Source: Escherichia coli O157 typing phage 4 | Length of the DNA: 64,000 nt | Direction: 5' to 3' (one strand) | Sequence record: KP869102 | Shown: in pieces, positions 1 to 16,450 of the stretch | How the letters are laid out: every line of letters begins with the position of its first letter | How positions within the stretch are numbered: position 1 is the first letter of the stretch | Notes under the pieces: generated by a model | Seen by the model: only the letters and a program-made list of their open reading frames with translations | What the model was told of the DNA's origin: nothing | Databases searched by the model: none | Program-made: the position numbers and the translations under genes

Positions 1-893
1 TGAGCATACTCTTTCTTAAGCTCAATGGTGACTACGTGCAGTGTTTTAGCCACGCCCAGTGGGTCGTCTACCTTAAACCCGCGATCCAGGATGATCTGCA
101 ACGCATTGATGCTATGCCCCGTTTCCACACCGATAGGGTCGTAAGAGGATTTACGCTTGCCACCAGAGCCTTGAGTGCCGTTCTCTGCCTTAGGAGGATA
201 GGCCTTGAAACCACTGATAATGTTTCCGGTGTCTTTGTCAACAATGGCTGCAACACGACCACCTACCACCAGGTCTTTAAGCTGCTCATCAGTTACAACC
301 ATAGCACCTTCGCCAATCTTGTGGTCATTAACAGTAACCACGTTGCCAACAATCTGAGTCACATCACCATAGATGCGTAAAACGTCCTGATTGGCATTCT
401 GCTGAGGTTTCTGCTTCTGGCCTTGTGATTGTGCACCTTGTTGCTGTTTTTGCTGCTGAGTCGCTGCTGGAGCCTCTCCTACACCCAGCTTAACCATCTT
501 AGCCAGTGAGCCTTTGTAATAGGTCTTACCGTTATGCTCGTTTGCCTTCAAAGGAATATTTACGATCCATCCTGGCGTTACGGTTTCCCACTTGTCATCA
601 ATCTTAACAGAGACAGAGTCTTGATGCCCCGGTTTAAGCAGCTTATCACCCATGCTGATCCAGACTTCTTCACCGCCTTGAAGCAGGTTATCAGAGGAAT
701 CCAGTTCAGAAATCAGTAAAGAGATAGTGTGGCTGGATTCAATTTTCTTACCTTGCCACACGGTGGTTTTAATACCTGTTGCAGGATCAGCCCCTTTAAT
801 AGGTTTAATGCTAACACGCTTGATCATGCCGTGAGCCAGTAAAACAGTTTCACGCGGATTCATCGGGTTAGCGAATTGTTGAATAACGCTCAT
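1..893 (-). CDS. hypothetical protein with Gln-rich linker, C-terminus outside window; possible replication-associated DNA-binding protein
   Basis: Manual minus-strand translation from ATG at 893-891 (RBS AAGGAGA upstream) stays open to position 1; absent from ORF track because no stop lies in the window; heads the replication block. Confidence 0.5.
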   Translation of the reverse strand, partial: MSVIQQFANPMNPRETVLLAHGMIKRVSIKPIKGADPATGIKTTVWQGKKIESSHTISLLISELDSSDNLLQGGEEVWISMGDKLLKPGHQDSVSVKIDDKWETVTPGWIVNIPLKANEHNGKTYYKGSLAKMVKLGVGEAPAATQQQKQQQGAQSQGQKQKPQQNANQDVLRIYGDVTQIVGNVVTVNDHKIGEGAMVVTDEQLKDLVVGGRVAAIVDKDTGNIISGFKAYPPKAENGTQGSGGKRKSSYDPIGVETGHSINALQIILDRGFKVDDPLGVAKTLHVVTIELKKEYA

Positions 894-1258: not shown

Positions 1259-1341
1259 TATGGAATCTCCGATTTTATTTGAACAACATAGAAGGAGACA
1301 CTATTTTAGCATCCCCTTCTGTAAATTACAATAGGTATTTG

Positions 1342-1587
1342 TTAGCCAATCACTTCGAAAGTTCCCCAATTCCCGTCCAGCAGGCAGGTGATCGGATCCC
1401 CATCGTCGTCAAAGATTTCAAAGTTTTCAGCATCCAGGATGTGGCCCTCGAACACAATACTTTCGTCGCCACCACCAGAGATAACAGCGTATTCCTTACC
1501 TTGAGTCAAGTTTTGACACCCTTTGCCACCAAAACCTACTTCAACACAACGTACTTTCTGTCCTGCGCGAGCAACTACTTCAGTCAT
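1342..1587 (-). CDS. hypothetical small protein (DDDGD motif family)
   Basis: ORF track 81 aa; AGGAGA RBS upstream of ATG. Confidence 0.5.
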   Translation of the reverse strand: MTEVVARAGQKVRCVEVGFGGKGCQNLTQGKEYAVISGGGDESIVFEGHILDAENFEIFDDDGDPITCLLDGNWGTFEVIG

Positions 1588-1604
1588 CTTAAGGTCTCCT
1601 GATA

Positions 1605-1925
1605 TTAATCGTCAAGTTCAAAATAGATTTTAACAGCTTCATCGAAGATTGGAATCCCGATGTTGTTGATAAGCTGCCAAACTACCATATCTTTACCTGG
1701 ATCTGGGAGAATGTCAACCTTTCTCCATGCGCTGTATACCCAGTTCGGACCGCCTTCTGCACTAACTGGCAGATTTTCACCAGCCTCCTGTAGATACTTA
1801 TACAGCAAAAGATATTCTGGATACTCCAGAACACTGTCCTCTGTAGTATATAGCAGTTCACGGTATACTTTTAAGAACCCTGCTGGGGTGATGTTTTCAG
1901 TCTTCATTTGCTGCTTCTCCTGCAT
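1605..1925 (-). CDS. hypothetical protein
   Basis: ORF track 106 aa; internal ATG at 1907 has a better RBS (AGGAGAA) and may be the true start. Confidence 0.5.
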   Translation of the reverse strand: MQEKQQMKTENITPAGFLKVYRELLYTTEDSVLEYPEYLLLYKYLQEAGENLPVSAEGGPNWVYSAWRKVDILPDPGKDMVVWQLINNIGIPIFDEAVKIYFELDD

Positions 1926-2286
1926 TCATCAGATCTGCCATAGCGTCACCCACGAAGAGAACAACCACATCGTTTACCGCGTCAGCATCATCTTTGTTGA
2001 CGTTGCTGAATTTAGGACACACAGCAATAATCATATAGACACCGTTACCCACCTGAACTGTCCGTGTGGTGCACATCATGGCGGTATTTGTGCCTTCTTT
2101 GAAGGCGAAGCCTTGAAGACGCTCCTCTAGAGTGTTACCGGTAGACTTCAGAAGCGCCAGCTCGTCCAAGGCATAGATGATATCTCCGGAAGTTAGTGTT
2201 GCCTTGCCATCAGACACCATAATCACTTCATCAGCACCGTCAAGCTTAGAGGCTTCAAAGATATCAATATCCCAAATATTTTTCAT
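1897..2286 (-). CDS. hypothetical protein
   Basis: ORF track 129 aa; tightly packed in minus-strand operon. Confidence 0.5.
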   Translation of the reverse strand: MKNIWDIDIFEASKLDGADEVIMVSDGKATLTSGDIIYALDELALLKSTGNTLEERLQGFAFKEGTNTAMMCTTRTVQVGNGVYMIIAVCPKFSNVNKDDADAVNDVVVLFVGDAMADLMNAGEAANED

Positions 2287-2618
2287 TACGCTTCCTCGTC
2301 GTCTAAGTAATCATCAAGAGAGGTGAAGATTTCACCGAAGTATTCTAAGATTTCTAGCTCACGTGTGGTGCAGCAAACATAATCGCCTTGGTCGTCCTTA
2401 ATAGTGGCCTCTTTACCCAGAATATCTACTTCAAGTTCATCGTTCAACAGGACGGCCCCTGTGTAAACTTTGTCAGCTGTGCAGTCCCGAAAAGCAGAGT
2501 CCTTCTCCAGATAGTCTGGCTTAACCTTGGCTTTAATTCGTTGGTATTGTTTGGTCATTGTTGTGGTCCCCTTTCGTTTTGATAGGACCATTGTATTAGG
2601 TCCTATCGCTGTTGTCAA
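2286..2618 (-). CDS. hypothetical small protein, paralog of 2622-2876
   Basis: ORF track 110 aa; shares AFRDCT and KDDxGD motifs with the neighbouring ORF. Confidence 0.5.
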   Translation of the reverse strand: MTTAIGPNTMVLSKRKGTTTMTKQYQRIKAKVKPDYLEKDSAFRDCTADKVYTGAVLLNDELEVDILGKEATIKDDQGDYVCCTTRELEILEYFGEIFTSLDDYLDDEEA

Positions 2619-2621
2619 GTA

Positions 2622-2876
2622 TTAATGTTCAGGTTTTACAAAAACGACTTCATTAACAGTGCACCAGACAGAGTCTCCTTCATCATCTTTAAAGGTAAGG
2701 CACTGTGCTGAGTTTTCCAGCTCATCGATCTCTTCTTGTGATAAAGGGGCCCCTTCTTCCAGAAGGGCTTTTACCAGAGGGTTCTCACAAAACTCTGCTT
2801 CATAAATTGCACCGACTGTGCAATCTTTAAAAGCTCGGTCATTTGCAACGCATTCTGGCTTCAAAGTAATTTTCAT
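2622..2876 (-). CDS. hypothetical small protein, paralog of 2286-2618
   Basis: ORF track 84 aa; AFKDCT and KDDEGD motifs. Confidence 0.55.
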   Translation of the reverse strand: MKITLKPECVANDRAFKDCTVGAIYEAEFCENPLVKALLEEGAPLSQEEIDELENSAQCLTFKDDEGDSVWCTVNEVVFVKPEH

Positions 2877-2952
2877 CTTGGCAGTCTCCTTAGTTATTTA
2901 AAAATCACCGATCTGTTTGTGTGAAGCATCTTATATCTAATCTTACTTCTTG

Positions 2953-3351
2953 TCAATGGCTATTTTCAATCAGCCACACAGGGTCGAGGTAAATTTGTTG
3001 GCGTGTTGCCCAATGACAAACTTCATTGTACATCTGAATCTCTTTGTCCGTCAGTTCACGAATAGGCTCATCTATACCCTCATTTTTGTGGTAATCCCAG
3101 TCGGCATCGATTTCCCACAGCCATGACTTGTTGTCACCACGCTTACGCACACAGAAGTCACCGGGACGGCCTGCCAATGCATTTAAGAACTCGTTCTCCG
3201 CTCGCTCTTGGAGAATACTAAGGAGCAAAACGTTAGAACATGACCGTAGAATATGCTTCAGCTCACAATCATCAATCTCAACTTCAATACGTTGTTTGAC
3301 TGTGTGGGTACCTTTTACTAACATCCTACCTCCTCTAAACGAACTCTGCAA
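2953..3351 (-). CDS. hypothetical protein
   Basis: ORF track 132 aa. Confidence 0.5.
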   Translation of the reverse strand: MQSSFRGGRMLVKGTHTVKQRIEVEIDDCELKHILRSCSNVLLLSILQERAENEFLNALAGRPGDFCVRKRGDNKSWLWEIDADWDYHKNEGIDEPIRELTDKEIQMYNEVCHWATRQQIYLDPVWLIENSH

Positions 3352-3529
3352 GGGTTGTGTTGTTCACTGCACCGCAGTAAATGGAGTATCCCAGCCCATT
3401 AGAGTGCAGAAACCACGGCGTGCCGAAATTATCTTTCACGTAGACATCACCGTTGCTTGTAAAGGGCCAATATTCTTCACCAAGGGTGAAATACCTACTC
3501 ATACCCTCAGCCAGATACTTTACTTTCAT
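3335..3529 (-). CDS. hypothetical small protein (paralog family with 3526-3753 and 3750-4124)
   Basis: ORF track 64 aa; shared G..W[FY][IL] and LA[EK]FV motifs. Confidence 0.45.
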   Translation of the reverse strand: MKVKYLAEGMSRYFTLGEEYWPFTSNGDVYVKDNFGTPWFLHSNGLGYSIYCGAVNNTTLAEFV

Positions 3530-3753
3530 AGGCCCTCTTCAACAGCTACAAACTTGGCAAGCAGGGTGGTTCCGTAGATATGATACTCACCGTTTGCCAG
3601 ATGGGAGATAAACCAGGCAATCCCTTCCTCGTCTTTAATCATCTTGTTTGCACGATTTTTATCGTAATAAACCTCGTAGGTCTTTCCTTCTTTAAAGAAT
3701 GACAGGTCTGTCATCTTTTCTTCTACAAAAGTAGCTTTAACCAAAGTTGTCAT
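3526..3753 (-). CDS. hypothetical small protein (paralog family)
   Basis: ORF track 75 aa; KDEEGIAWFI motif. Confidence 0.5.
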   Translation of the reverse strand: MTTLVKATFVEEKMTDLSFFKEGKTYEVYYDKNRANKMIKDEEGIAWFISHLANGEYHIYGTTLLAKFVAVEEGL

Positions 3754-4124
3754 TGATCGGTCTCCTTCTTGTTAAGTCTGAATACTGCAATAATAGCATT
3801 CCCAAGGTGCAGTGTCAAATCATTTCCAAGATACCACAACATTCCACGGTCATCTTTAATGAAAGGGTAACAATCTGGTGCCTTCCAGACATTGTACACT
3901 TTCCCAACCTGAAAGAAATCAGGCCCTGTTGGGATTTTGGTGCCAGGCCACACTTGGGATACCTGAACACACTCCACCTGCATAATAACAGGAATAGTCA
4001 TGGATGTAAATGTTTTTGTTGGTTCTACTACCATAAAAGTCTCCTCTTTGCTTAACAGCACCTCCCTGTGCTGATAGTTTACATTAGTGACAATCACCCC
4101 AGTTACGACCACACAAGTATTCAC
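3750..4124 (-). CDS. hypothetical protein (paralog family)
   Basis: ORF track 124 aa; KDDRGMLWYL motif. Confidence 0.5.
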   Translation of the reverse strand: MNTCVVVTGVIVTNVNYQHREVLLSKEETFMVVEPTKTFTSMTIPVIMQVECVQVSQVWPGTKIPTGPDFFQVGKVYNVWKAPDCYPFIKDDRGMLWYLGNDLTLHLGNAIIAVFRLNKKETDQ

Positions 4125-6861
4125 CTGTGATCTGGAACGGGACTCCCATCATTTTAGAAGCTTGCCAGAAGCAATGTACCACCATCTCGCCCACAGGGCT
4201 CCAGATAAGTTCAAGCTTTCCGTCATCGTTCAGGATAGGATCGTACACCGTGTTTCCGTCTCTGTCAACCACTTCGTTTCCGTTTTCATCCTTGCGTGCC
4301 TTTTTGTACTTATGACCGTCGAACACATGAAGTTTGGCCTCCTGCTCTGCCTTAAATGCTTCCAATTCTTCAATTGTGTCGAAGGTGTACACAGTCTTAT
4401 ACTTCGGTGTGTCAGGTACTTGAAGCTGATATTCGTCATGGTAATAGATAATACGACGAACACCTTCATCGTACCACCCACGCTTCACCATTTGGTGGTG
4501 CATAAGTATCCCAACTAAGTCACACAGCGATGCACCACCATTCTGTTGGTATGCATTAAGTAAAGAGTGTTTAGATCGGGTCCAGATGGCATGACCATCA
4601 AAAGAGTAGATAAACTTCTTACCCGTTGCTTCCCAGAATTTCTCCAGATCCTCTTTACGCCCCTTAAGACCAGGGTTGGCATCCCAAAGTGCATCGATCA
4701 CCCTTTGTCCCAACTCTGGAGAGATGTCCAGCATATCTGCAACTTTATCTTTTTGTGCCCCGTACATAACCCCATACGTGATAGGTTTACCGTCGTTACG
4801 AGACACCTCTCTGCCTGCTACTTTTGTATATGCCTCAGCATTGTTTTGGTGTGCGTCCCCGTTACTTACAACATCATAATACAAGCCGTTGTCGAACTCA
4901 AAGGCACCCCAAGCCCCGATAAGCTGCTCTAAGTTGGACCCGTCAATACCGATCTCAAAGTATCCTGGAGGAACACCCCACAAGCTACGCATCTCTTTAC
5001 CCATAACCACTTTAGGAGAGGGTTTAGGCATGTTTGCACAAATACTGTGTTTCTGTCTGGAAGTGTTTGTTAATCCAGAGCTTTTAGCAGGAAGCTTATG
5101 GTCAATCTTCAAACGTGGGTGATTAAGAAGACCAGTGTCAACCTTATCCTCCTTGATTGGATCAAGTACCGATCTGCGGTTTCGCAATGATAACCATAAG
5201 ACGATATCTTTAGCCATCTCTCCGTTCAATTTTTCAAGATTCGGACACAGGTGTCCAAACGTATCTTTCAGTTGCGGAGAAGTAATAAGTGCCCTAGCTT
5301 TTCTACGTATTTTCCCGAATACTTCCTTTTTAATCCTTTCGGAGTTAGGAAAGCTTCGGAACTTGTGCACGGTTGTCTGGAACTTAGCATCAGTTTTGTT
5401 CCAGAAGTTGATAATTAGGTCACAATACTCTGACTCTAAAAGCTCGTCCATATATGCATATACTCGTGCATCAACATCTGCATCAGGTAGAGCTTTCTTC
5501 TTGCTGTCTTTAGTTACATCCTTAGTTCTCCACATTGTCGGAAGCCAACCAGCACTGATCAGGTATCGCTTAATGTCGTCCTGATTGCTGATTTTCATAG
5601 GTATCTTGCAGTCCGGCATTCGCTTCTGCTGTAGATCACTTATTGCCTGATCCATTAGCTCTTTAGGTAAAGGTTGTGGTGTGGAGGTGCCCTTAATATA
5701 ACCTCTCAAGAAATCAGCCATCTTGTCGGGGTCTTTGCAGCCCATCTCTTCGCACCATTTTATCCCCATCTTGCTGACATCTCCTGTGGAGGTAAATGCT
5801 CGCTTAGGCGGGGCTTTGAACTCTAAAGCGCTCATGTCTACAGGATAGCCAAGCTTATCTTTTAACCATTTCCAACCATTATTGGAGATTGTCCCATCTT
5901 GGTTAAACGGCTTTTCAGGGAACTTGGGCCGCTGAGACATTGACAGCTCTTTTAAAGGTAGTTGTGGTTCAACACGATCAGCTATTTCTTTCATCCACGC
6001 ATCACAACGGTCACGTAAAGCAATAGCTCCATCTATGTCAAAATACACACCCTGACGGGCCTGCAGCTCCATCAGGAAGTGCTGCAGCATGCCTCGGCGT
6101 AGTGCGTTCTTCCAGGTGATCTTCTTGAACCCTTTCGGCTTCTCTTTGGCAGGATCGTACATAAAGTTCTGCATGTCAGATTTGCCGTAGAATACACCTT
6201 TTGATTCCGCTACCAGCTCTTTCCAGAGCAGCTCCTGGATGATAACGTCCTCGAATACACGATCCACATACTTCCACAATGGAAGATCGCGCCAGTCATC
6301 AATTTGAACTTTCTGGTTACCAAGGGCGTAGCCCCATGCCATAAGGCCGTGAGGACCAACAGGCTGCATTTTCTTAGTAACCGGGTTGAATACAGAGTCC
6401 GGACAACCTTTTGGTAAAGGGCGATCAGGCCACAAGATTCGGCTCATCGCCAACGTATCAAACAGATTAACCTGGTGGTCGTTGATAGTCCCCATGCATT
6501 TAGGATCACGGAACATATCAAAATGAATACCGGATAATCTTTCCATCAGCATAAAGTCATAACTGTAGCAGTTATGGCAGTTCAAAGCTGTTGGTGACCA
6601 GTCGGAATTTCCTGTAAGCCAACCTTCCAACTCCGAAAAATCTGCTATGCGAACTTCAAAATCTTTATAAAGAGTTTTCTTTGCCAGAATAAAGTTCTTA
6701 GCCTTCTCTATATCCTCCTCGGAGTAGTGTGTGCGGTCATTTAGAGGAAGGAACAGCATAAAACGGTTCTTATTCAGCTCTTTAAACAGGCCGCAATGAT
6801 AATAAAGATCTGGGTCTTCCAAGAGCCCGGAGGCCTCCAGATCGAAGCACCAATTACTCAT
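4084..6861 (-). CDS. DNA polymerase, family A (Pol I/T7-like) with 3'-5' exonuclease domain
   Basis: 925 aa; exo motif FDLEASG; polymerase motif A-like DGSNLEQL, motif B KPITYGVMYG, motif C YYHDEYQ. Confidence 0.9.
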   Translation of the reverse strand: MSNWCFDLEASGLLEDPDLYYHCGLFKELNKNRFMLFLPLNDRTHYSEEDIEKAKNFILAKKTLYKDFEVRIADFSELEGWLTGNSDWSPTALNCHNCYSYDFMLMERLSGIHFDMFRDPKCMGTINDHQVNLFDTLAMSRILWPDRPLPKGCPDSVFNPVTKKMQPVGPHGLMAWGYALGNQKVQIDDWRDLPLWKYVDRVFEDVIIQELLWKELVAESKGVFYGKSDMQNFMYDPAKEKPKGFKKITWKNALRRGMLQHFLMELQARQGVYFDIDGAIALRDRCDAWMKEIADRVEPQLPLKELSMSQRPKFPEKPFNQDGTISNNGWKWLKDKLGYPVDMSALEFKAPPKRAFTSTGDVSKMGIKWCEEMGCKDPDKMADFLRGYIKGTSTPQPLPKELMDQAISDLQQKRMPDCKIPMKISNQDDIKRYLISAGWLPTMWRTKDVTKDSKKKALPDADVDARVYAYMDELLESEYCDLIINFWNKTDAKFQTTVHKFRSFPNSERIKKEVFGKIRRKARALITSPQLKDTFGHLCPNLEKLNGEMAKDIVLWLSLRNRRSVLDPIKEDKVDTGLLNHPRLKIDHKLPAKSSGLTNTSRQKHSICANMPKPSPKVVMGKEMRSLWGVPPGYFEIGIDGSNLEQLIGAWGAFEFDNGLYYDVVSNGDAHQNNAEAYTKVAGREVSRNDGKPITYGVMYGAQKDKVADMLDISPELGQRVIDALWDANPGLKGRKEDLEKFWEATGKKFIYSFDGHAIWTRSKHSLLNAYQQNGGASLCDLVGILMHHQMVKRGWYDEGVRRIIYYHDEYQLQVPDTPKYKTVYTFDTIEELEAFKAEQEAKLHVFDGHKYKKARKDENGNEVVDRDGNTVYDPILNDDGKLELIWSPVGEMVVHCFWQASKMMGVPFQITGEYLCGRNWGDCH

Positions 6862-7592
6862 ACTGTCTCCTCCTGTGTCTTCTCAGCATTCTTTCTTGCA
6901 GCTATTGCATCGTCCCTGTTCTTGAAATACCCAAGGCATTTCCTTTTACCATCTACATAAATTCTGGCTACCCATCTTTCATGGGTTTTATCCCAATTCA
7001 CCCCTGAGCAACCGCTGGTGTTATTATACTGCACGGCTCTTCCACTCTTGTGCGAAAAACCATTATCTTCGAAGAACTTTCTTGCCCACTCTGCCTCTTC
7101 AAAAGTTCTGTACTGGCCTAGCCAGACCCTTTCACCTACAGAGTCTGTGCCTTGAGCTACCCACGCCTCTCTTTCTTCAGAATAGTGCACCCCGACCCTG
7201 CCAGATTTGTTGTTGCTACGAGGTATCTTGCAACTTTTCTTTTTGTTATCTGTAGGTTCGAGTAGTTGCAAATTTTGAATACTGTTGTCAGCCACACCAC
7301 CTGTTTCCCTTATCTCCTTGATGTGGTCAACCTCATACCCTTCTGGTACAGGACCGTTAAACATTTCCCAGATTATAACGTGGGCACCTTTAGTGCAATG
7401 CTTTCCTAGACTAACCACAGGCCTGCCATCAGCATCTTGCCCCTTGTCAGCTCTGGAGCCTGCTGAAGTTTTAACATATCCTACACCGCTGCCTGCCAGA
7501 ATGTCTATCTTCCAAAAAAGATTTTGACCGTCATACTCCAATATTTCTGACCACAAGTGATTGGCTACACAGTGATCTCTGAACTCGTTCAT
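6858..7592 (-). CDS. HNH homing endonuclease with two AP2 DNA-binding domains
   Basis: 244 aa; HNH_3-like VIIWEMFNGPVPEGYEVDHI...NLQLL; two AP2-like repeats (GVHYSEEREAWVAQ, GVNWDKTHERWVARI); free-standing between pol and primase-helicase. Confidence 0.85.
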   Translation of the reverse strand: MNEFRDHCVANHLWSEILEYDGQNLFWKIDILAGSGVGYVKTSAGSRADKGQDADGRPVVSLGKHCTKGAHVIIWEMFNGPVPEGYEVDHIKEIRETGGVADNSIQNLQLLEPTDNKKKSCKIPRSNNKSGRVGVHYSEEREAWVAQGTDSVGERVWLGQYRTFEEAEWARKFFEDNGFSHKSGRAVQYNNTSGCSGVNWDKTHERWVARIYVDGKRKCLGYFKNRDDAIAARKNAEKTQEETV

Positions 7593-7650
7593 AAAGTGTT
7601 CTCCTTAAAGGGGAGGCGGTTGTACTACCCCTCCCACTCTTTGTTAAACA

Positions 7651-9729
7651 TTAAAAAGGTGTTTCATCATCCTCAAAACCAGGAACATGGTCAGAGGACG
7701 GATCATCGTACTGGAGGTCTTCCTGCGTGTCAACAGGCTTAACAGTAGGAGTTACAACCTTATCAGCCACAACCTTACCCATAGGTGTTTCTACAACTGC
7801 ATGCTCCTGATCCTCAAACATAGCCTGAGGTCTCCAAACAACCTCCCCACCTTCTCCATCTGTAAACATTTGCATTTCTTTGTCCCAGTACCAATTACTG
7901 GCATCATGGAACTTACCTGTATGTGGGTCCATAACCAAAGTGTCTGCAATACCTAAAGTTTTTGCTGGACGGTTTTTAAGACCTACCAGTCGGACACGCC
8001 CACGAGAACGATCCACCATTTCTTCGGCCTCGACACCTATGACTACCCAACTCAACTGTTCAAGCCCAGCCGATCCTCGCAAATTCTCTTTTCGCACAGG
8101 ATACCAGAAAGGTAACGGGTTACCATCCTTGTCCTTAGGAGGCACAATCTCTGTACGTTTGAGGTGAGCGATCACCAAGATAAACACATTGAACTGCTTA
8201 CAAAACGCAGCCAGCTGGGTCATAGCCATGTCCAGTTCTTTTCGCTCATCCTTAACATTAAGCCCCGAAATTACCATGGACAGGTGATCCAGCACAATAT
8301 AACGGCAATGGTACAGGCAAACCATTTGCTTAAGCTTGGTAATCAACTCGTCCACCGGAATAGACCCGAAATGTTTGAACACTTTGATTTTTCCAGCTTT
8401 TGCCCATGATTGGTGAATCTCTGCGTGTTCTTGATCAGTTAAAAACTGGCTAGGATCTTCAACAAACTCTTTAACATCAAACCCTAGCTGGTTTGCATAC
8501 AAGGAGTTAATTGCTTCCTCTGGGTCCTCCTCAAGATGGATCATGCATAGACGATCATCCTCTTCATAGTCATCGGCCTTCGGGCATGTCGGGTCCATCA
8601 AGTATCTTGCAATACAATGTTCCAGTTTTTTAGCTACAGTTGTTTTACCGCCCCCTGATGGCCCTGTAAGCATTACGAGTGTCCCTTTGTGCAAGCCTTT
8701 TAGCATTTTTTGCAGTTTTGGAAACTCTGCGCTGATATCTACCCCGTTGGAAGTCTTTTTCCGCAAAGATTCGATAGAGAAGTCTTCTAAATCCGACACA
8801 GCATCAGGCACATACTTAACAGGATGCCGGAACATGTTTACAATATCTTCCAGCTTTTTAGCCTTTAGCATGTCACGGATATCTTTTACACCGTCAGGAT
8901 CGTTTACCTCACCGGGGTATTCTACGTGGTAAACGTTATCAGCCATCAAAAATGCTGCGATATTGTGCGTGGCCTCAACACCTTTAATGACGTGTTTTTG
9001 CTTCTCTACCTCGTTAGCTGCATCGTTATCCATTGCCAGCACAACTGTTCCATAGCTACGGATAAACTTCTCATTGTTTGCAAAAGTATCTACTGCGTTT
9101 GCACATCCACAGTTAATTCCAACAAAAGGCAGGCATGGTTTTCCTGCCAGATCGCCACCGTTGATAACTGCATCGATCCCGTCCTGGACCTCTTTAGCCC
9201 ACTGTTTCACCTTTGCCGGGGCTTTAGCGTTGGTGAGAATCCCTTTTACTTGTATCTGATATGCAGCCTGCCATGCTGCAATAACATCACCTTCTCCCTC
9301 ACAAACGTTAATCTGCTTACGGTTGTTGGAAGATGCACACAGCTTTTGACCAAACATCTGAGAGTTAGCCTTTACTATGCCAACAACGGAGAAATGGCCT
9401 CTTTGCTCTTTAGGAATCGTCCAGTCACGCTTTTTGAAACCGGACAGATTTCCGTAGCGGTCGTAATATGGGAAATATGTTGCAGTGACTGTCACACCAT
9501 CTTCTTGGGATAATGCTGATCGCACACCAAAATATTGTGCAGCCATCAGACCGATATTTTGTTGTGGGACAGGGACAATTTTAGTATTTTCTAAAACAGT
9601 CTCTACAGTTTCAACTTCTTTTTCATCACGATAGTCTCGTTTCACACTTCCCCCACTTTTATACTTAGTTGCTTTCGGGTTTGGCTCACCGAAACGGTTG
9701 TATGCAGATGCCATAAATTTACTTCCCAT
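7651..9729 (-). CDS. bifunctional primase-helicase (T7 gp4-like: TOPRIM primase + DnaB-family helicase)
   Basis: 692 aa; TOPRIM VCEGEGD and MDNDAANE; Walker A TGPSGGGKT; Walker B IVLDHLSMV; acidic C-terminal tail ending in Phe. Confidence 0.9.
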   Translation of the reverse strand: MGSKFMASAYNRFGEPNPKATKYKSGGSVKRDYRDEKEVETVETVLENTKIVPVPQQNIGLMAAQYFGVRSALSQEDGVTVTATYFPYYDRYGNLSGFKKRDWTIPKEQRGHFSVVGIVKANSQMFGQKLCASSNNRKQINVCEGEGDVIAAWQAAYQIQVKGILTNAKAPAKVKQWAKEVQDGIDAVINGGDLAGKPCLPFVGINCGCANAVDTFANNEKFIRSYGTVVLAMDNDAANEVEKQKHVIKGVEATHNIAAFLMADNVYHVEYPGEVNDPDGVKDIRDMLKAKKLEDIVNMFRHPVKYVPDAVSDLEDFSIESLRKKTSNGVDISAEFPKLQKMLKGLHKGTLVMLTGPSGGGKTTVAKKLEHCIARYLMDPTCPKADDYEEDDRLCMIHLEEDPEEAINSLYANQLGFDVKEFVEDPSQFLTDQEHAEIHQSWAKAGKIKVFKHFGSIPVDELITKLKQMVCLYHCRYIVLDHLSMVISGLNVKDERKELDMAMTQLAAFCKQFNVFILVIAHLKRTEIVPPKDKDGNPLPFWYPVRKENLRGSAGLEQLSWVVIGVEAEEMVDRSRGRVRLVGLKNRPAKTLGIADTLVMDPHTGKFHDASNWYWDKEMQMFTDGEGGEVVWRPQAMFEDQEHAVVETPMGKVVADKVVTPTVKPVDTQEDLQYDDPSSDHVPGFEDDETPF

Positions 9730-10513
9730 TAATTCTGCTCCTTACTACAGGCTCGTTTGCTAAGAATACGGCTTTTGCCCAGCCACGTGGTGTGAGGCTT
9801 CGAATCATCTTCGTTCTTGCACTCTTTCCACCCAGCTTGGCGTGTTGCATGGAATACCCGCTAACCACGTCAACTATTTGCGGGACAGGTTTTGTGGCCG
9901 GGATTATAAATCCATTACCTATCCAGCCGCAAGTTATTTTTGGATAGGCATCACGTGGAGCTATAAATTCAGGAAACCATGGGTTTACATCATCTTCCGG
10001 TAAATACCCGCCATAGTCAGAAGGATGAAAACGGTAATCAGGTTTGCGCCACAGTGTGGACATAACACCTACAGGATTCTCTACATGCCACGGGCAATCG
10101 TAAATCTCTCCCAGCTCTTCCGCAACCCGAGCATCCCTTACAGCATTAATTTGGATCATGGGGTCCTTAGCCAGCTTTTTCTTAAAATGTGCAGCACCTG
10201 ATACCGCTAAATGCGTGCACGGAGGAAATGCAAGAATAAAGTCTGGAGCTGGGTACATGCAAAAAGTTTCCTGAGGGAACCATGGGTCAATCCAATAATC
10301 CACATAGTGAATGTTGGGATGATCGGTTATCACCTCTGCATAACTGCCGTGATCAGCACCTTCTGCATTAAAGCACAGGCACAGATACCCAGCTTTTGCC
10401 CAGTCAATGACTGCACCACCAGATCCGTCAAATAGGCTCCACACAACACCTTTGTGGTAGTGTTCTTTGTAGATAAATTTCAATTTGCTGTCTCCTAATG
10501 CAAAAAGCCCCAC
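9719..10513 (-). CDS. short C5-cytosine methyltransferase-like protein (no obvious target-recognition domain)
   Basis: Motif I-like LFDGSGG, motif IV-like FPPCTHLAVSG, motif VI-like ENPVGV; track start is GTG inside an upstream hairpin, TTG near 10483 with AGGAGA RBS is more likely. Confidence 0.6.
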   Translation of the reverse strand: MGLFALGDSKLKFIYKEHYHKGVVWSLFDGSGGAVIDWAKAGYLCLCFNAEGADHGSYAEVITDHPNIHYVDYWIDPWFPQETFCMYPAPDFILAFPPCTHLAVSGAAHFKKKLAKDPMIQINAVRDARVAEELGEIYDCPWHVENPVGVMSTLWRKPDYRFHPSDYGGYLPEDDVNPWFPEFIAPRDAYPKITCGWIGNGFIIPATKPVPQIVDVVSGYSMQHAKLGGKSARTKMIRSLTPRGWAKAVFLANEPVVRSRINGK

Positions 10514-10534
10514 CCTTTCGGGCAGGGCCTAGTG

Positions 10535-11017
10535 TTAAACCCGGATACCTATTGTATACTCGGTGGATACCAATGTCAAATCTAAATTTAAAATTTCTTG
10601 CATCTCATAATATGCGTCCAGGGTGAGATACATTTCCCCATCCTTTTCTACATACTTGTCCAAGTGCTTGAGGCATTTCGGATAACTATCGAGTGCAGCT
10701 TTCAGACACTCAAACTCTGTGCTGTTGATGAGTCCTTCCATCTTGGCTACCCGTTCTGGGGTAACGATAGCACTGTAGTGAGATTTAGCTTCCTGAATGC
10801 AATGGGTCCAAGCATCAACTTTCTCTTCGAAAAGCCCGAAGAATTTCTTTTTGGTGAGCTTCAGATTCTTTAAGTGCTTAAGCACTCGGTTGCCGATCAC
10901 AGCCACATCACGAAACTTAAGGATCACTTTGTCGATATCCTCGCGGCCTATTTTCACAAAGCAAGCCTCACACATTTCAGGAGCTGCGTAACCTACTTTC
11001 CACATAAAATCTGACAT
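10535..11017 (-). CDS. hypothetical protein
   Basis: ORF track 160 aa. Confidence 0.5.
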   Translation of the reverse strand: MSDFMWKVGYAAPEMCEACFVKIGREDIDKVILKFRDVAVIGNRVLKHLKNLKLTKKKFFGLFEEKVDAWTHCIQEAKSHYSAIVTPERVAKMEGLINSTEFECLKAALDSYPKCLKHLDKYVEKDGEMYLTLDAYYEMQEILNLDLTLVSTEYTIGIRV

Positions 11018-11029
11018 AACACTATCTCC

Positions 11030-11428
11030 TTATTCTTCCTGAAAAGCAACGATATCATATGAACTTGCAGACGATCCTGGTGAAGAATGACTCCAGTCTA
11101 GGTCATCAGAGTAGTCAGCGTACTGTGCACCACTACGTAGTTTATATTTTACCCACTTACCTGGTGCAGGGTTTTCACCACCTTCCCATACTTCCCAGCC
11201 TTCTGGCAGGCCGTCCTGGGAATAGTCATCCACCTCACTAATAATCTTAGGGTTTGGCACCAAGATCCCTGCAGGCTCTTCCTTCCGGATAAGTGTCCAC
11301 ACAACGTAGGTGTCTGAGCAGGCGCATGATAGCAAAGTATATCCACTATTCAGAACTTCTGCAAGCTCTTTTTCAGCATCTTCCAATTTGGTTAAGTGGT
11401 ATTGGAGAATCTTCACACCTGTAATCAT
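11030..11428 (-). CDS. hypothetical protein
   Basis: ORF track 132 aa. Confidence 0.5.
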   Translation of the reverse strand: MITGVKILQYHLTKLEDAEKELAEVLNSGYTLLSCACSDTYVVWTLIRKEEPAGILVPNPKIISEVDDYSQDGLPEGWEVWEGGENPAPGKWVKYKLRSGAQYADYSDDLDWSHSSPGSSASSYDIVAFQEE

Positions 11429-11772
11429 CAGAAACCTCCCACTTCTTCGGCAAATGCAGCTGCTGTCGTCGCTGCATCCAGATAGGACTCTAGTTCACGG
11501 GCTGCACGTTTGTAAATTGAGTGGCGAATATCGTTTGGCAGTTGGTGGAAGTCCACCTCTTCACCGTTGTGGTAAACATGCACATCAGTGATCTGTCTAA
11601 ATCCGTAATAGTCAACATCAGAATCACGGCACTCCGGGTCTGGCAACTGGACAACTGCCTGAGCTTCTACAGTGAACATATCGTCAAGTTCGAAATCGAT
11701 TTCAAAAGTGTATGGTTTATAACGTTTCATCATTTGATTGTACTCTTTATTGATCAGACTTATCTTTCGCAA
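11428..11772 (-). CDS. hypothetical protein
   Basis: ORF track 114 aa. Confidence 0.5.
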   Translation of the reverse strand: MRKISLINKEYNQMMKRYKPYTFEIDFELDDMFTVEAQAVVQLPDPECRDSDVDYYGFRQITDVHVYHNGEEVDFHQLPNDIRHSIYKRAARELESYLDAATTAAAFAEEVGGF

Positions 11773-13072
11773 TTAAGGTCGGGGCAAGTTTGTAATAACG
11801 GAAGCCACCACCACCTTGCCAGTTTACAGACTTAGAAATACCACCTTGATCTTCCCCATCGATCACTTTTTCCAAGCGCGGAATAATATGGGTATGGCAA
11901 TGATCACCAATCTCGATGGAGATCCAACGTCTTTTCATCTTGTGAGCTACAGCGGCAGTAGTTCCCGAACCACCGAATGAATCCAATACCAAATCACCTT
12001 CTCGCGTACACATTTCGAAAATCCGCTTCAAAAGCGCTTCTGGTTTTTTCCCATTTTTGAAACTAACGCCGCCTTCATTTGCTATTCCATTCCAACTAAT
12101 GTCTGTCCAAACATCAGTTATTAGTTCCGCAGGTTGCATATCACCGTCAATTTCCAAAAGCCTGTTGGAGTAAAAGACCATTTGCCTACCATTTGCGATA
12201 TAAAATCCTTCAACATCCTCATTTGGATGTACATAAACCTTATCCCTATCTTTCTTTGACTTCTCTATAGTTTCTTTTCTCTTTATTTTAGCACCACCAC
12301 CAATTGCAACAGATTGAAATACACGTTCTGCATTATCAATTGCAAATTGTGCTAATTCATCATCGAATGTGTCAGGCAGTTTTTTCTTGGCTTCTTTTGC
12401 ATCTTTATAGCCATTGGCCTTTGCAAACGCATCGGCAATACCGCACCACGTCCAATTTTTATAATGATCATCCGGGTTTAATAGGTATTTGTTATATCCG
12501 GTATCATACCCTTTAGGTATATAGATTTTGTTAAGCGGTTTCTGGGTGCGATCTTTTGCATATACAAGCAAAAAGTTTGCTGTGGAGAAAACTGTGGCTC
12601 CTGTTGCCTTAAATCCCGAAGGGGAATTTGTGGTCATCGATATGGTATTTAACTGATTTGCACGACCAAAAATCTCGTCCATCAAAACTTTTAAATACGC
12701 CATTTCGCAATCATCTAAGTGAACGAATATTACCCCGTCATCACTTAGAAGATTACGAATTATTTCTAACCTATCCCTCATTAAGCCCAACCAAATGGAA
12801 TGCTCCAGACTATCATCGTAGTGCTCAAAAGCCCTCCCGGTGTTGAATGGTGGGTCTATGTAAACACACTTCACTTTGCCTGCGTACTCTTGCTCTAGCG
12901 CCTTCAATGCTAATAAGTTATCTCCAAAAATCAGCTTATTATCAAAAATATCGTTTTCGGTAACTCTCTGGCTGTGGTAAGACTTACTCGAATCTTCTAA
13001 CAAAATGTGCGGCTCTAATTTTTTGCGCTCGTTTTTACCTATCCAGGTAAGTTCTAATTTGGTTTTGCTCAT
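11747..13072 (-). CDS. DNA amino-methyltransferase (N6-adenine or N4-cytosine), beta-class motif order
   Basis: 441 aa; motif IV VYIDPPFNTG near N-terminus, motif I DSFGGSGTT near C-terminus. Confidence 0.8.
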   Translation of the reverse strand: MSKTKLELTWIGKNERKKLEPHILLEDSSKSYHSQRVTENDIFDNKLIFGDNLLALKALEQEYAGKVKCVYIDPPFNTGRAFEHYDDSLEHSIWLGLMRDRLEIIRNLLSDDGVIFVHLDDCEMAYLKVLMDEIFGRANQLNTISMTTNSPSGFKATGATVFSTANFLLVYAKDRTQKPLNKIYIPKGYDTGYNKYLLNPDDHYKNWTWCGIADAFAKANGYKDAKEAKKKLPDTFDDELAQFAIDNAERVFQSVAIGGGAKIKRKETIEKSKKDRDKVYVHPNEDVEGFYIANGRQMVFYSNRLLEIDGDMQPAELITDVWTDISWNGIANEGGVSFKNGKKPEALLKRIFEMCTREGDLVLDSFGGSGTTAAVAHKMKRRWISIEIGDHCHTHIIPRLEKVIDGEDQGGISKSVNWQGGGGFRYYKLAPTLIAKDKSDQ

Positions 13073-13133
13073 CGTTTGGTGCTCTCCTTAGTTTTTTGTG
13101 GGGAGGAGGCCTCCCCTTTATACTCACATCTTA

Positions 13134-13475
13134 CTACTCAAGGTCTTCAGAGTCAAGCTCAAAAAGAATCAAACTGTGCATGCCTGCAGAGAGATCAACA
13201 CACCCTGCAACAATAAGGGTCTGATAGTAAGGTTCAGCACCCTCGATGTCTTCGTTAAAATCCACAACAAGGTAGTCACCTTTGTTAAAGGTGTATTTGT
13301 CCGATGTGAATGCAAAACCTGCCCAGTCCCCTACTGCAGGATCTTTATCAGTCACCTTTGTTAGCAGTAGATCTTTTTCACGAGATCTTTTAGTAAAATC
13401 GTGAATCACAACATCCTTCTCTTCAGGAGTTGGATTGCCACACACGTAGTTAACGATATTTCTCCACAAACTCAT
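13134..13475 (-). CDS. hypothetical protein
   Basis: ORF track 113 aa. Confidence 0.5.
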   Translation of the reverse strand: MSLWRNIVNYVCGNPTPEEKDVVIHDFTKRSREKDLLLTKVTDKDPAVGDWAGFAFTSDKYTFNKGDYLVVDFNEDIEGAEPYYQTLIVAGCVDLSAGMHSLILFELDSEDLE

Positions 13476-14842
13476 ACGTCCCCCTCTTCGGCTCTGGTTT
13501 CAAAATCTTTCCTGACAATTTTGTCTAAGTCAGGGAATGTTGTATTGTAAAACTCTACGACTCGCGGGTCAACAATAATGTCAACTTCTCTTAGTGGACG
13601 CAACAAGTTTATTCCTTGTATTGTCTTAACTCTGCTCAAAGCGACATACGTCATCCCAGGAGAGAAAGCTCCGTTCTTTCCAAGGTCTAGGTTGTAACAA
13701 TCTAGCGTAAGTCCTTGACTTTTATGAGATGTTACGGCGTACCCAGATTTCAGAGGAAGTTGCTTGTATGACCCAATCACTACCCTCTCTATAAACTTCT
13801 CCATCTTCCTTTCTGCAATGTTGTATCTCTGAGATGGCTTATACTCGTTATTCTCCCACAACCTCTGCTCTATGTCAACCTGTGTTCCATCTTCAAGCTC
13901 TACCACCACCGCCTTGTTCTTAAATTTAACAATTGTGGCACGTGTTCCGTTAACATAATAAGGTACTTTGTGCGTCGGGTCAACATCGTTGGCGGTTATC
14001 ATAACTTTCATGCCAATTTTCAACTTCATCTCCTGCTCAACTGGCAGGGTGGAGGGAAACTTACCCTTCATTTCCCCAGTGTATACCTTCTCCGGGGCGT
14101 TGATGGCATCATAGAACCTTCTGTTCACTTCCTCTGCTTGTTTGTTGGTGGCGCAAATTGTGAGAGCGTCTGTTGGTACACCGCCTTTGTAACAGCGAGC
14201 ATTAAGTTCTGCTACAACCTCTTTTATGCGACGACCCTCACGAACACAGTTGAGCATTGTGGCAAATCGAATAGACTCCTGTCGGAACTGATCTATTAGG
14301 GCTATGTTGTGGAGGTCAAGCTCTTTCCAAGATTCGGTATAGCAACACAGGTCTGTATGGTAGAAGTTGAAGTAGGCTTCCTTCTCCATAGAAGAGACAA
14401 CAGGAGGTGCCTGGTAAAAATCGCCAAACAATATGACCTGTATGCCTCCGAAAGGTTTGTCATTTTTTCGAAGGAAGCGAAGTTTCCTATCCATCTCTAT
14501 AAACTTATCAGCACGGATCATAGAGATTTCATCGATAATCAGGATGGTAAATGCCTTGCTTTTCAAAGGCTTTGCTGTTTTTGCCCTTATTGCGGTCCAG
14601 TCTGACTCCATGCTCACACCTGCTGCAAGATCGAAGGTTCGGTGTGCTGTTGCTCCATTAACGTTTAAAGCGGCTACCCCTGTCGGGGCAACCGTTATGC
14701 AAGAGTCTCCATACATTGACTGGATCATGTTGATGAGGTACGTCTTCCCACAACCTGCGGGTCCTGAAACGAAGACATTCTCACCGCTCATGATTGCAAC
14801 GAGGGCAGCATCTGTGCCTACATCATACTGCCCTTTTTCCAT
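13472..14842 (-). CDS. SF1 DNA helicase, Dda/Pif1/RecD-like
   Basis: 456 aa; Walker A GPAGCGKT; IIDEISMI; C-terminal YAVTSHKSQGLTLD. Confidence 0.85.
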   Translation of the reverse strand: MEKGQYDVGTDAALVAIMSGENVFVSGPAGCGKTYLINMIQSMYGDSCITVAPTGVAALNVNGATAHRTFDLAAGVSMESDWTAIRAKTAKPLKSKAFTILIIDEISMIRADKFIEMDRKLRFLRKNDKPFGGIQVILFGDFYQAPPVVSSMEKEAYFNFYHTDLCCYTESWKELDLHNIALIDQFRQESIRFATMLNCVREGRRIKEVVAELNARCYKGGVPTDALTICATNKQAEEVNRRFYDAINAPEKVYTGEMKGKFPSTLPVEQEMKLKIGMKVMITANDVDPTHKVPYYVNGTRATIVKFKNKAVVVELEDGTQVDIEQRLWENNEYKPSQRYNIAERKMEKFIERVVIGSYKQLPLKSGYAVTSHKSQGLTLDCYNLDLGKNGAFSPGMTYVALSRVKTIQGINLLRPLREVDIIVDPRVVEFYNTTFPDLDKIVRKDFETRAEEGDV

Positions 14843-16047
14843 TACGCCTCCTCGTAAAGAATGTCGATAGTGTTACCGTCTCGGTCAACCACGTATTCAA
14901 TCGGGTCTCCGTCCTTGCGTGCTTCCGGAGCTACCACAATCTCATAGCGGCATGCACGGCACTTAGCGCTATTGTGTTGGTATGGCACACTAACCACATC
15001 TGCAGGGTCAACCATGACAGTCATTACAGTGCCGTAGCTCTTCGCATACTCTTTGCTGGCGCAGTGTAAGCCATAGGAGCACGCAGCTTCAGGATCATCC
15101 TCTACAAAGTTACGAGGCATGGATACAAAAGCACCTTGGTATTGTGGGACTTTACCACTGTGCCAATCCACCCACTTGCTACCGTTAAACTGAACCCCTT
15201 TGTAGCAAATGATTCGACCATCTTCTGCAATCTGAATATCATTGGCCTGCATAAAATCGTAGAGCATGTTTACAGATTTTGCAGAAGGATTGCGTAGCAG
15301 GCGAACGAGGAATTTCACATAGCGGTCATCCAGCGTTCCGTCTGCATAATCTTTCTCAATTTTCTTTGCAATGGTGGATCGCATCTCTACACCGTAGTAG
15401 TAGAGCTTACCATCTTTCATGATCAGGTTGTCTGCAAGTGTGGTGAACTCATTCTTGCGTTCCAGCCAGACAAGGATTTCACCAATTGCCTCGTCATATT
15501 CCTGAACAGAGATATGGTCGAAGACTTTCTGGTAAACTTCCTCACTTTCGCTGCGGCGAATTTCAAAAATGCCTTCGTTGCAGGTGATCTGGAGGAGTTC
15601 CCCACAAATAACTACCAAAGGCTCGATGCTTCGAGTTTGTTGCTGAGACACACTGCTCACCACCTCCAGCACCGGATCTTTGACTTCTACTAAAGGTTCT
15701 TCTGACTTGATTGCCACCCCAGTGAACCCCACACCGTGAACAACACACAGTGGGTATACCACGCCCCAACGTTTAACGGAACCTTCGCCTAAGTCTAAGA
15801 TCATGGCGTACTTACCATTATCTTCCAATCCATAGCGGAATAAACGGGCCTCTTCGCGGGTTTCAAAATCCTCACGGGTGTAGCAGACGCTGTCACGGTC
15901 AGGATCGAACAACTCTGGGGCACCCACTGCCAGTGTCCAGGTTGTGTCGCCTTTCTCAATGGCACATGTGAAACCCTTCTTCTCAAGTTCTGCACGGCGG
16001 TCTCGTGCTTCTTTACGGGTTTTGAAATGTTCGTAGATGAAAATCAT
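14842..16047 (-). CDS. hypothetical protein, putative rIIB-like (by position next to rIIA-like gene)
   Basis: 401 aa; ATG with AAGGAGA RBS; the contig overlap places it directly downstream of the rIIA-like gene; no diagnostic motif. Confidence 0.5.
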   Translation of the reverse strand: MIFIYEHFKTRKEARDRRAELEKKGFTCAIEKGDTTWTLAVGAPELFDPDRDSVCYTREDFETREEARLFRYGLEDNGKYAMILDLGEGSVKRWGVVYPLCVVHGVGFTGVAIKSEEPLVEVKDPVLEVVSSVSQQQTRSIEPLVVICGELLQITCNEGIFEIRRSESEEVYQKVFDHISVQEYDEAIGEILVWLERKNEFTTLADNLIMKDGKLYYYGVEMRSTIAKKIEKDYADGTLDDRYVKFLVRLLRNPSAKSVNMLYDFMQANDIQIAEDGRIICYKGVQFNGSKWVDWHSGKVPQYQGAFVSMPRNFVEDDPEAACSYGLHCASKEYAKSYGTVMTVMVDPADVVSVPYQHNSAKCRACRYEIVVAPEARKDGDPIEYVVDRDGNTIDILYEEA

Positions 16048-16120
16048 CTTGGTCTCCTTATTTGATGTTATTCTTTGTATCGATCAGTTCACGGTATTCA
16101 ATCATAGCAGGAGTGTCCCA

Positions 16121-16130
16121 NNNNNNNNNN
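16121..16130. other. assembly gap (N10)
   Basis: Run of 10 N. Confidence 0.95.
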
Positions 16131-16440
16131 CTCAATGGTGACTACGTGCAGTGTTTTAGCCACGCCCAGTGGGTCGTCTACCTTAAACCCGCGATCCAGG
16201 ATGATCTGCAACGCATTGATGCTATGCCCCGTTTCCACACCGATAGGGTCGTAAGAGGATTTACGCTTGCCACCGGAGCCTTGAGTGCCGTTCTCTGCCT
16301 TAGGGGGATAGGCTTTGAAACCACTGATAATGTTTCCGGTGTCTTTGTCAACAATGGCTGCAACACGACCACCTACCACCAGATCTTTAAGCTGCTCATC
16401 GGTGACAACCATAGCACCTTCGCCAATCTTGTGGTCATTG
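16131..16440. repeat. 310-bp near-identical copy of window 21-330 (synonymous variant contig)
   Basis: By-eye alignment: about 6-7 substitutions; track translation of 16098-16454 (-) is identical to my translation of 21-330 (-). Confidence 0.85.
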
Positions 16441-16450
16441 NNNNNNNNNN
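16441..16450. other. assembly gap (N10)
   Basis: Run of 10 N. Confidence 0.95.

Follow-up and report, generated by a model that had tools for sequence, protein, structure and literature searches.

A T7 gp4-type phage primase-helicase without a zinc ribbon and with a C-terminal tip resembling that of bacterial SSB

Can a primase of the DnaG type work without its zinc-binding domain (ZBD), and what would a replicative helicase dock to through an acidic tail that ends in phenylalanine? Both questions are raised by one gene of Escherichia coli O157 typing phage 4 (record KP869102), of which we analyzed a stretch of 64,000 nucleotides, hereafter called the window. The gene encodes a primase-helicase related to gp4 of phage T7. 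To our knowledge, work on DnaG-type primases (E. coli DnaG, T7 gp4, T4 gp61, plant Twinkle) has without exception regarded the ZBD as essential for recognizing the template and handing off the primer, and priming is absent from the ZBD-less forms that we know of, T7 gp4B and animal Twinkle. We favor the reading, to which we give a probability of roughly 0.6, that the phage protein is an active ZBD-less primase-helicase whose tips, of the class of the C-terminal peptide (SSB-Ct) of SSB, the bacterial protein that binds single-stranded DNA, tether the phage polymerase in a T7-style coupling with an SSB-like protein.

Window positions 7000-10600 match Escherichia phage JES2013, a Vequintavirus (rV5-like myovirus), at 100% identity, and the JES2013 counterpart of the gene encodes a 100% identical protein annotated as 'putative DNA replicative helicase/primase'. 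The annotation of the gene as a primase/helicase, and the family itself, are already known. The gene and the parts of its product lie as follows.

7651..9729, minus strand: complete coding sequence of the primase-helicase, 692 aa plus stop (open reading frame (ORF) with an ATG start; matches to phrog_239, Pfam and T7 gp4).
9622..9729, minus strand: basic, Cys-free N-terminal segment, residues 1-36, at the position of the ribbon (predicted disordered, with a predicted local distance difference test score (pLDDT) below 50).
8800..9609, minus strand: RNA-polymerase (primase) domain (RPD), N-terminal subdomain plus TOPRIM, residues 41-310 (AlphaFold2 pLDDT mostly >90; Foldseek).
7900..8739, minus strand: superfamily 4 (SF4) helicase domain of the DnaB/gp4 type with a RecA fold, residues 331-610 (Pfam; alignment with T7 gp4).
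8641-8664, minus strand: Walker A motif GPSGGGKT, residues 356-363, within the helicase domain.
7654..7899, minus strand: poorly conserved, acidic, Pro/Val-rich C-terminal linker, residues 611-692 (composition, charge and gap-rich, variable alignment columns).

A first-pass annotation, made from the letters alone, had called the product a T7 gp4-like primase-helicase, and profile, sequence and structure comparisons all bore this out. The protein matched phrog_239, 'DNA primase/helicase', at E=7e-160, with the match beginning at profile position 86. Pfam DnaB_C (1.9e-13) and AAA_25 (2.1e-15) matched residues 331-589, and the best PDB sequence matches were T7 gp4 chains (E=4e-16, with T7 gp4 393-545 aligned). 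An AlphaFold2 model of residues 1-325 had a mean pLDDT of 84 and a predicted template modeling score (pTM) of 0.80. Its top Foldseek matches were the T7 gp4 primase structures 6n9v, 6n9u, 1nui and 5ikn at a probability of 1.0, with a template modeling score against the T7 primase domain of up to 0.85 on the target, and bacterial DnaG catalytic cores ranked next. Overall identity to T7 gp4A (63 kDa; PDB 1nui, 1q57, 5ikn, 6n7i-6n9x) was ~20-27%, and the two proteins share the order of RPD/TOPRIM, linker, SF4 helicase and acidic, Phe-terminated tail, the C-terminal linker being longer in the phage protein. The LRGS motif (H4 'RGS') at residues 550-553 is on the same polypeptide as the primase domain.

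We observed separately that homologs of ~975-1015 aa carry an insertion of 308-323 aa exactly within this helicase motif, at LRG/S (between the G552 and S553 codons, window ~8071-8076). The insertion has Cys as its first residue and ends in ...TGN, with Ser following, and it is therefore an intein. The primase-helicase of the window is free of it, and Pfam gave no flag for an intein in the homologs.

The ribbon that T7 gp4A carries in residues 1-56 is missing from the phage protein, as the first-pass annotation had claimed. His first occurs at residue 112 and Cys at residue 131. No Pfam family matched residues 1-139 even at E≤10, while residues 1-65 of T7 gp4, our positive control, matched PF08273 Zn_Ribbon_Prim at 2e-12; PF08273 goes unmatched in the phage protein because the Cys4 ribbon is missing. 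When we aligned the protein with T7 gp4A and ZBD-bearing relatives, residues 1-36 fell on the T7 linker between ZBD and RPD (...KRKPSGGKPM), and the ribbon cysteines C17/C20…C36/C39 found no counterpart. Confident AlphaFold2 structure starts at about residue 41. A cryptic zinc-binding fold was looked for in the N-terminus and was ruled out by the absence of Cys and His, the Pfam null result and the predicted disorder of residues 1-36.

In principle a ZBD could escape notice because of a misassigned start codon, a frameshift or an intron, and split genes do occur in the group: the polymerase gene of phage WalterGehring is interrupted by a homing-endonuclease insertion. Two features upstream of the gene bear on this explanation.

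9738..9743, minus strand: Shine-Dalgarno sequence AAGGAG, 8 nt 5' of the primase-helicase ATG, read from the sequence.
9719..10513, minus strand: gene of a Dcm-like C5 methyltransferase, the upstream neighbor, which overlaps the primase-helicase start.

The Shine-Dalgarno sequence is strong, many stop codons lie in frame upstream of the ATG, and the methyltransferase gene overlaps the start by 11 nt. Because of the stops and the overlapping gene, no upstream exon or frameshift can add a ZBD to the protein, and with the strong Shine-Dalgarno sequence an alternative start is ruled out as well. The same N-terminus occurs in 120 homolog clusters and >100 phage genomes, and in window 1-22000 no Cys4 ORF was found on a real gene. 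The explanation by an annotation or assembly artefact is refuted by the sequence.

To survey the distribution of the ZBD, we ran an exhaustive search with the primase half as query against 1.84 billion cluster representatives and obtained 189 matches. The ~95 closest clusters at 50% identity contained no CxxC…CxxC and had their TOPRIM at residue ~100-135; canonical ribbons (CPSCR…CNRC, CDKCGSSDA…CYAC) were confined to the most distant matches, where TOPRIM stands at ~145-180. Altogether the ribbon was lacking in 93/102 cluster representatives (50% identity), and the Cys4 motif was absent from all close homologs, down to ~43% identity (rV5, phi92/Av-05, 4MG and ICP1 types and other Vibrio phages). 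One P0029-like subgroup has four Cys ahead of TOPRIM, which we considered as a degenerate ribbon and rejected, as they are scattered and form no CxxC pairs. By this survey the ZBD-less state is a clade trait: the missing ribbon is not peculiar to this gene and defines a large, diverse natural clade. The phage protein resembles T7 gp4B (56 kDa, from an internal start), which also begins just before the RPD, with the addition of the T7 linker on which residues 1-36 align. T7 makes gp4B and ZBD-bearing gp4A together from a single gene, whereas the phage gene has the ZBD-less form as its sole product, and this form is ancestral in a large clade.

Does a primase domain without the ribbon retain its catalytic centre? 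The relevant elements are these.

9286..9300, minus strand: TOPRIM motif E144-G-E146-G-D148 (T7 E157/E159/D161), invariant in the homolog alignment.
9022..9030, minus strand: metal-binding motif D234-N-D236 (T7 D207/D209), invariant in the homolog alignment.
8881..8883, minus strand: D283 (T7 D237), the third TOPRIM acidic site; K282-D283 is invariant in the homolog alignment.
9163..9294, minus strand: two-helix hairpin within TOPRIM, residues 146-189 (AlphaFold2 helices 146-166 and 172-189; alignments).

The primase fold and the catalytic residues E157, D207, D209 and D237 of T7 gp4A are shared by the phage protein. Among the 93 ZBD-less representatives, the equivalent of E157 (E144) is kept in all 93, those of D207 and D209 in 88 (the remainder being gaps) and that of D237 in 89. 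The basic cleft residues K122/R124 of T7, here K99/R101, are mostly retained across the clade. This pattern indicates that the catalytic residues are under purifying selection throughout the clade, which is the signature of retained catalysis.

Loss of the ribbon is accompanied by loss of priming in two known proteins, and it could be argued that the primase-like domain is non-catalytic here too, serving as a structural, loading or ssDNA-binding module while primers come from transcripts or from recombination-dependent replication. The ZBD-less 56-kDa gp4 of T7 is a full helicase that 'lacks template-directed primer synthesis' (PMC2910064), and human TWINKLE, which has no zinc finger, has undetectable primase activity (PMC2241861). 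No second primase is found among the JES2013 annotations, and genes of a recombination type are present in the phage, along with a Dda-like helicase and an exonuclease. Like the phage protein, metazoan mitochondrial Twinkle (PDB 7t8b, 8e2l) belongs to the gp4-family helicases, has a primase-like domain at its N-terminus and lacks a working zinc finger. It has, however, also lost the Mg-binding acidic residues (PMC2241861), whereas the phage clade keeps E144, D234, D236, D283 and K99/R101 clade-wide. We therefore consider that the primase domain is probably active without a zinc ribbon, the catalytic acidic residues being nearly invariant, unlike those of animal Twinkle, and that a non-catalytic domain is decidedly unlikely. 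Since conservation of the catalytic residues goes together with the lack of a ZBD, one may reasonably infer, with the first-pass annotation, that priming sites are recognized in a different mode.

The phage TOPRIM also differs from that of T7 gp4A by a helical hairpin insertion of ~45 aa, which comes after the EGEGD motif and before the following strand, with an inserted arm at ~residues 157-196. The insertion is lineage-specific: proteins of the rV5, phi92 and ICP1 types have it, while T7 and some Vibrio-phage relatives do not. Since it is missing in some ZBD-less relatives, it is no universal substitute for the ZBD.

A zinc module might instead be supplied in trans by a separate small zinc-ribbon protein that joins the hexamer. 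The primase ZBDs of T7 and plant Twinkle act in trans, even when physically separated (PMC10557236), and JES2013 does have small Cys4 proteins, such as ORF192 (64 aa; PF23903, 'phage zinc binding domain'; L004:17720-17914), which is encoded ~10 kb away, shortly beyond the edge of the window. A weak relative of ORF192 (36% over 42 aa) is encoded 5 kb upstream of the primase-helicase of a metagenomic contig, L008. The similarity between the two is marginal (E about 0.1-0.3, pooled search), no candidate matches PF08273 or the T7 ZBD, and no Cys4 ORF in the neighborhood of the gene is conserved among the window, L007, L008, L009, L010 and ICP1. ORF192 itself was rejected as a trans-acting primase ribbon: PF23903 is no primase ribbon and nothing supports such a role. 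We regard a ribbon in trans as very improbable.

We turned to the other end of the protein, which the first-pass annotation had likened to the polymerase-docking tails of T7 gp4 and gp2.5.

7654..7677, minus strand: tip F-E-D-D-E-T-P-F-COOH, a predicted SSB-Ct-class docking motif (homolog tails; E. coli SSB tip).

The protein ends in ...VPGFEDDETPF, the net charge being -9 for the 30 C-terminal residues and -15 for the final 80. The stop codon follows Phe692 directly, leaving a free terminal carboxylate; the penultimate residue is P691, and the acidic run E-D-D-E occupies positions -6 to -3. Once two C-terminal extensions are removed, -PF closes the sequence in 114/120 homolog clusters. Pro(-1) and Phe(0) do not vary among 40 distinct homolog tails, and Asp is the prevailing residue at -3 (28/40), -5 (21/40) and -7 (21/40). 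These are the features known to be critical in bacterial SSB, whose E. coli tip is DFDDDIPF (PMC3936761): the terminal Phe, the penultimate Pro (ssb-113) and a free carboxylate (SSB+Gly mutant) (PMC3632105). Through this tip, SSB is bound by chi, DnaG-C, ExoI, RecQ and RecO, each of which uses a hydrophobic pocket with a basic rim (PMC3632105). Like SSB-Ct, the phage tail combines an acidic run, an invariant penultimate Pro, a terminal Phe and a long acidic linker, and near-copies of the E. coli tip are found among the homologs (...PADFDDDTPF and ...PQDFDNDTPF, 6-7 of 8 positions). T7 gp4 ends in ...WSNDTDF (...SNDTDF aligned against ...DDETPF, with no penultimate Pro), and T7 gp2.5 in ...ADEDGDF. 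Judged by these sequences, the tip is closer to that of bacterial SSB than to the ...DTDF of T7. The earlier description of the tail as an acidic, Phe-terminated and functional element accordingly stands, with conservation now added to it, while its assignment to the T7 gp4 type is better replaced by SSB-Ct class.

Two differences from SSB-Ct were noted. The carrier of the tip is an SF4 replicative helicase, not an OB-fold ssDNA-binding protein, and position -2 is Thr690, where the SSB-Ct consensus D-D-D-[ILV]-P-F-COOH has Ile, Leu or Val. In the helicase tails position -2 is E in 14, T in 13, S in 7, C in 3 and P in 1, so that Thr, Ser or Glu stand where SSB tips have Ile, Val or Leu. A scan of the 137-kb JES2013 genome found the primase-helicase to be the only ORF with an uncovered acidic ...PF end; a second such tip, that of ORF199, is masked by an extension.

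ORF199 is of interest as the candidate partner of the helicase, and part of its gene lies in the window.

1..893, minus strand: first ~297 codons of the ORF199 homolog, the gene being cut by the window (full JES2013 gene L004:20475-21746, minus strand).

JES2013 ORF199 is a protein of 423 aa (phrog_4477, 'unknown function') that is annotated as hypothetical. It consists of two OB-like beta domains, a helical bundle, a Q-rich linker and a disordered acidic tail, and it ends in ...DDPMDQNPAQYDFCDDIPF (...YDFCDDIPF), after which JES2013 has 15 extra residues. Once this extension is removed, 69/70 clusters of the ORF199 family end in D-F-D-D-D-[IVL]-P-F, and many of the tails are identical to E. 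coli ...PPMDFDDDIPF. Position -2 in the ORF199/SSB-like tails is I in 24, V in 6 and L in 1. A profile of the family, searched against PDB sequences, matched E. coli SSB through the tip only, and a sequence search of all JES2013 ORFs with T7 gp2.5 and E. coli SSB gave no matches. ORF199 looks like the phage's own SSB.

The extra residues form an extension of 15 aa, AP[VI]GLQY[AG]x[HS]xI[YH]x[LI], that follows the ...PF tip in 25/70 SSB-like and 2/120 primase-helicase clusters. Its sites include the 3' end of JES2013 ORF199 (L004:20475-20522) and the primase-helicase homolog P0023 (L007:6017-6064). It always adjoins a homing-endonuclease gene; these genes are unrelated to each other, and the peptide is kept across synonymous changes. 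The extension would cover the carboxylate of the terminal Phe. As its origin we considered nothing more than a frame artefact arising from the start of the downstream homing-endonuclease gene: this fits JES2013 and fails for L007, with its unrelated homing endonuclease and conservation across synonymous changes.

Counterparts of this pair of tips were found in other genomes. In ICP1 the primase-helicase ends in ...DQDGDEPF, Pol A follows directly, and ORF68 (L006:30435-31601; phrog_2544, unknown function), which has no detectable phmmer similarity to ORF199, ends in ...GIDLDDSIPF. The helicase of Vibrio phage 277E43-1 ends in ...EDIDEPF, and a 402-aa protein of the same phage (L010:17866-19074) ends in ...ETPMDFDDDIPF (...PMDFDDDIPF). 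In metagenomic L008 the helicase ends in ...NYDGSF and a 261-aa protein (L008:14882-15667) in ...EEFDEEVPF. ICP1 ORF68, the 402-aa and the 261-aa proteins are probably unannotated SSBs. The trio of primase-helicase, adjacent Pol A and nearby ...IPF/...VPF protein is thus present in ICP1, Vibrio phage 277E43-1 and the metagenomic relative; L009 had no SSB-like tail within 10 kb on either side of the helicase gene.

Which protein would the tips bind? The nearest candidate is encoded next to the helicase.

4084..6861, minus strand: T7 gp5-like family A DNA polymerase, 925 aa (BLASTP: collinear with T7 gp5, starting at the exonuclease motifs and reaching the C-terminal ...CH).

The order of primase-helicase followed by Pol A was kept in every context that we examined (ICP1, L007, L008, L009, L010), and T7 likewise has its primase-helicase gene adjoining that of a gp5-type Pol A. 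In T7 the acidic gp4 tails bind the thioredoxin-binding loop (TBD) and the front basic patches of gp5, and removal of the 17 C-terminal residues of gp4 lowers processivity (PMC12593628). Given the synteny and the T7 analogy, docking on the phage polymerase is plausible, and the polymerase is the most likely partner of the tip. As in T7 gp2.5/gp4/gp5, a helicase and an SSB-like protein that are both acidic and Phe-terminated are encoded around a gp5-like polymerase. The phage system differs from T7 in that its tips are of the bacterial SSB type, ORF199 is unrelated in sequence to gp2.5, and the thumb insert of the polymerase is not the thioredoxin-binding loop: a clade-conserved insert of 121 aa stands at the position of the 76-aa TBD of T7.

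The likeness to SSB also suggests a different partner. The tail could be a mimic of SSB-Ct that connects the phage helicase to the host SSB interactome through host proteins (above all the helicase-binding domain of DnaG, otherwise the chi-psi subunits of the clamp loader or PriA), with host DnaG, which has its own ZBD, doing the priming and the phage ZBD being dispensable for that reason. The acidic run, penultimate Pro and terminal Phe of the tip match those of SSB (PMC3936761), the host proteins named above as SSB clients include DnaG-C and chi (PMC3632105), T7 gp4B without its ZBD gives no template-directed priming (PMC2910064), and the hosts of the clade, E. coli and Vibrio, have SSB tips ending in ...DDDIPF. 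Priming by host DnaG is, however, hard to square with a primase active site that is near-invariant in 93 diverse clusters. The polar residue at -2 of the 40 distinct helicase tails, in place of Ile, Val or Leu, suggests discrimination from genuine SSB tips, the tight synteny of primase-helicase and Pol A together with the T7 precedent favors a phage partner, and the phage has a polymerase, a ligase and RNase H-type functions of its own. We consider this host-directed explanation unlikely.

Under the reading that we favor, an active ZBD-less primase-helicase coupled to the phage polymerase, the primase domain would make lagging-strand primers without a zinc ribbon, its selection of template sites being relaxed or otherwise different and ssDNA presumably being supplied by the attached helicase ring. 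The six C-terminal tips of the hexamer would act as SSB-Ct-class docking peptides, with the Phe and Pro of each tip in a hydrophobic pocket and the Asp/Glu residues touching its basic rim. They would tether the T7-like DNA polymerase encoded immediately downstream, and perhaps engage SSB-client pockets more generally. ORF199 and host SSB, with their ...DDIPF tips, could occupy this site or a similar one, so that the coupling, hand-off and polymerase exchange of T7 gp4/gp2.5/gp5 would be reproduced with tips of the bacterial SSB type. The polar residue at -2 might tune affinity or tell the helicase tip from SSB tips. A broader version is possible, though we hold it only tentatively: this whole clade of DnaG/T7-type primases may prime without a ZBD by a new, possibly sequence-relaxed or helicase-guided engagement of the template, and the SSB-Ct mimic on the helicase may use, or compete for, the client pockets of both its own polymerase and host DnaG, chi and PriA.

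Several observations weigh against the favored reading, in addition to the inability of T7 gp4B to prime. We sought a basic docking patch on the polymerase by alignment with T7 gp5, and no docking site was identified. R590/R591 of the T7 front basic patch are kept as KK or KR, but only 2/4 of the front-patch residues align, and the loop with K587 and K589 is missing; these residue numbers, those of the T7 literature, are consistent with the T7 sequence. The thumb insert has no net basic character (19 K+R versus 17 D+E). Because position -2 is polar in the helicase tips and hydrophobic in true SSB tips, the two may not share a pocket. In JES2013 the 15-aa extension masks the ORF199 tip, and some members of the clade end in something other than PF (…DGSF, …HQEF) with no obvious matching change in the SSB-like partner.

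The surroundings of the gene are variable in one respect.

6858..7592, minus strand: HNH/AP2 homing-endonuclease gene between the primase-helicase and polymerase genes (Pfam HNH_3 and AP2).

This gene is missing from many close relatives, whose matches cover query 590-3601 only; the insertion that splits the WalterGehring polymerase gene itself is another one. Apart from JES2013, ~100 further rV5-like genomes match window 7000-10600 at 97-98% identity. Among the records near-identical to E. coli rV5-like phages are MG065655, MG065659 and MG065662, which are labeled 'Campylobacter phage' with C. jejuni as host; two of these phages, C2 and C5, have 97.7-97.9% DNA identity, and A142 has 99.6% identity in the encoded protein. 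Their C. jejuni host labels look doubtful.

On a larger scale, JES2013 120854-136910 corresponds to window 1-16057 at 99.8% identity. Beyond 16057 the window and the JES2013 record are no longer collinear (window 16058-26387): after rIIB, the window has a block of ~10 kb that matches JES2013 101851-111695. The block is preceded by a 309-bp duplicate, window 16131-16439, of part of the SSB-like gene (window 21-329; 98%). A rearrangement, terminal redundancy or an artefact of assembly could account for the break in collinearity.

Our literature search returned nothing specific on ZBD-less gp4-type phage primases or on mimicry of the SSB tail by helicases. We found no paper on clade-wide loss of the ZBD with a conserved active site, on an SSB-Ct-class tip of a helicase, or on the SSB nature of ORF199 and ICP1 ORF68. 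Annotation gains as well, since both ORF199/phrog_4477 and ICP1 ORF68/phrog_2544 carry the label 'hypothetical' at present. The phages concerned matter both in ecology and in therapy: among cholera phages ICP1 is the dominant one, and phages of the rV5 type are used against O157.

A natural clade in which the ribbon is gone and the catalytic centre appears to be under strict selection offers a handle on what DnaG-type primases need their ZBD for. The 'acidic tail' paradigm of T7 is widened by the SSB-type ...PF tip of a replicative helicase and likewise by the host-identical tip on an OB-fold SSB-like protein in rV5-, phi92- and ICP1-like phages. Together, the helicase and SSB-like tips suggest how the replisome of these phages is wired, possibly into the SSB interactome of the host.

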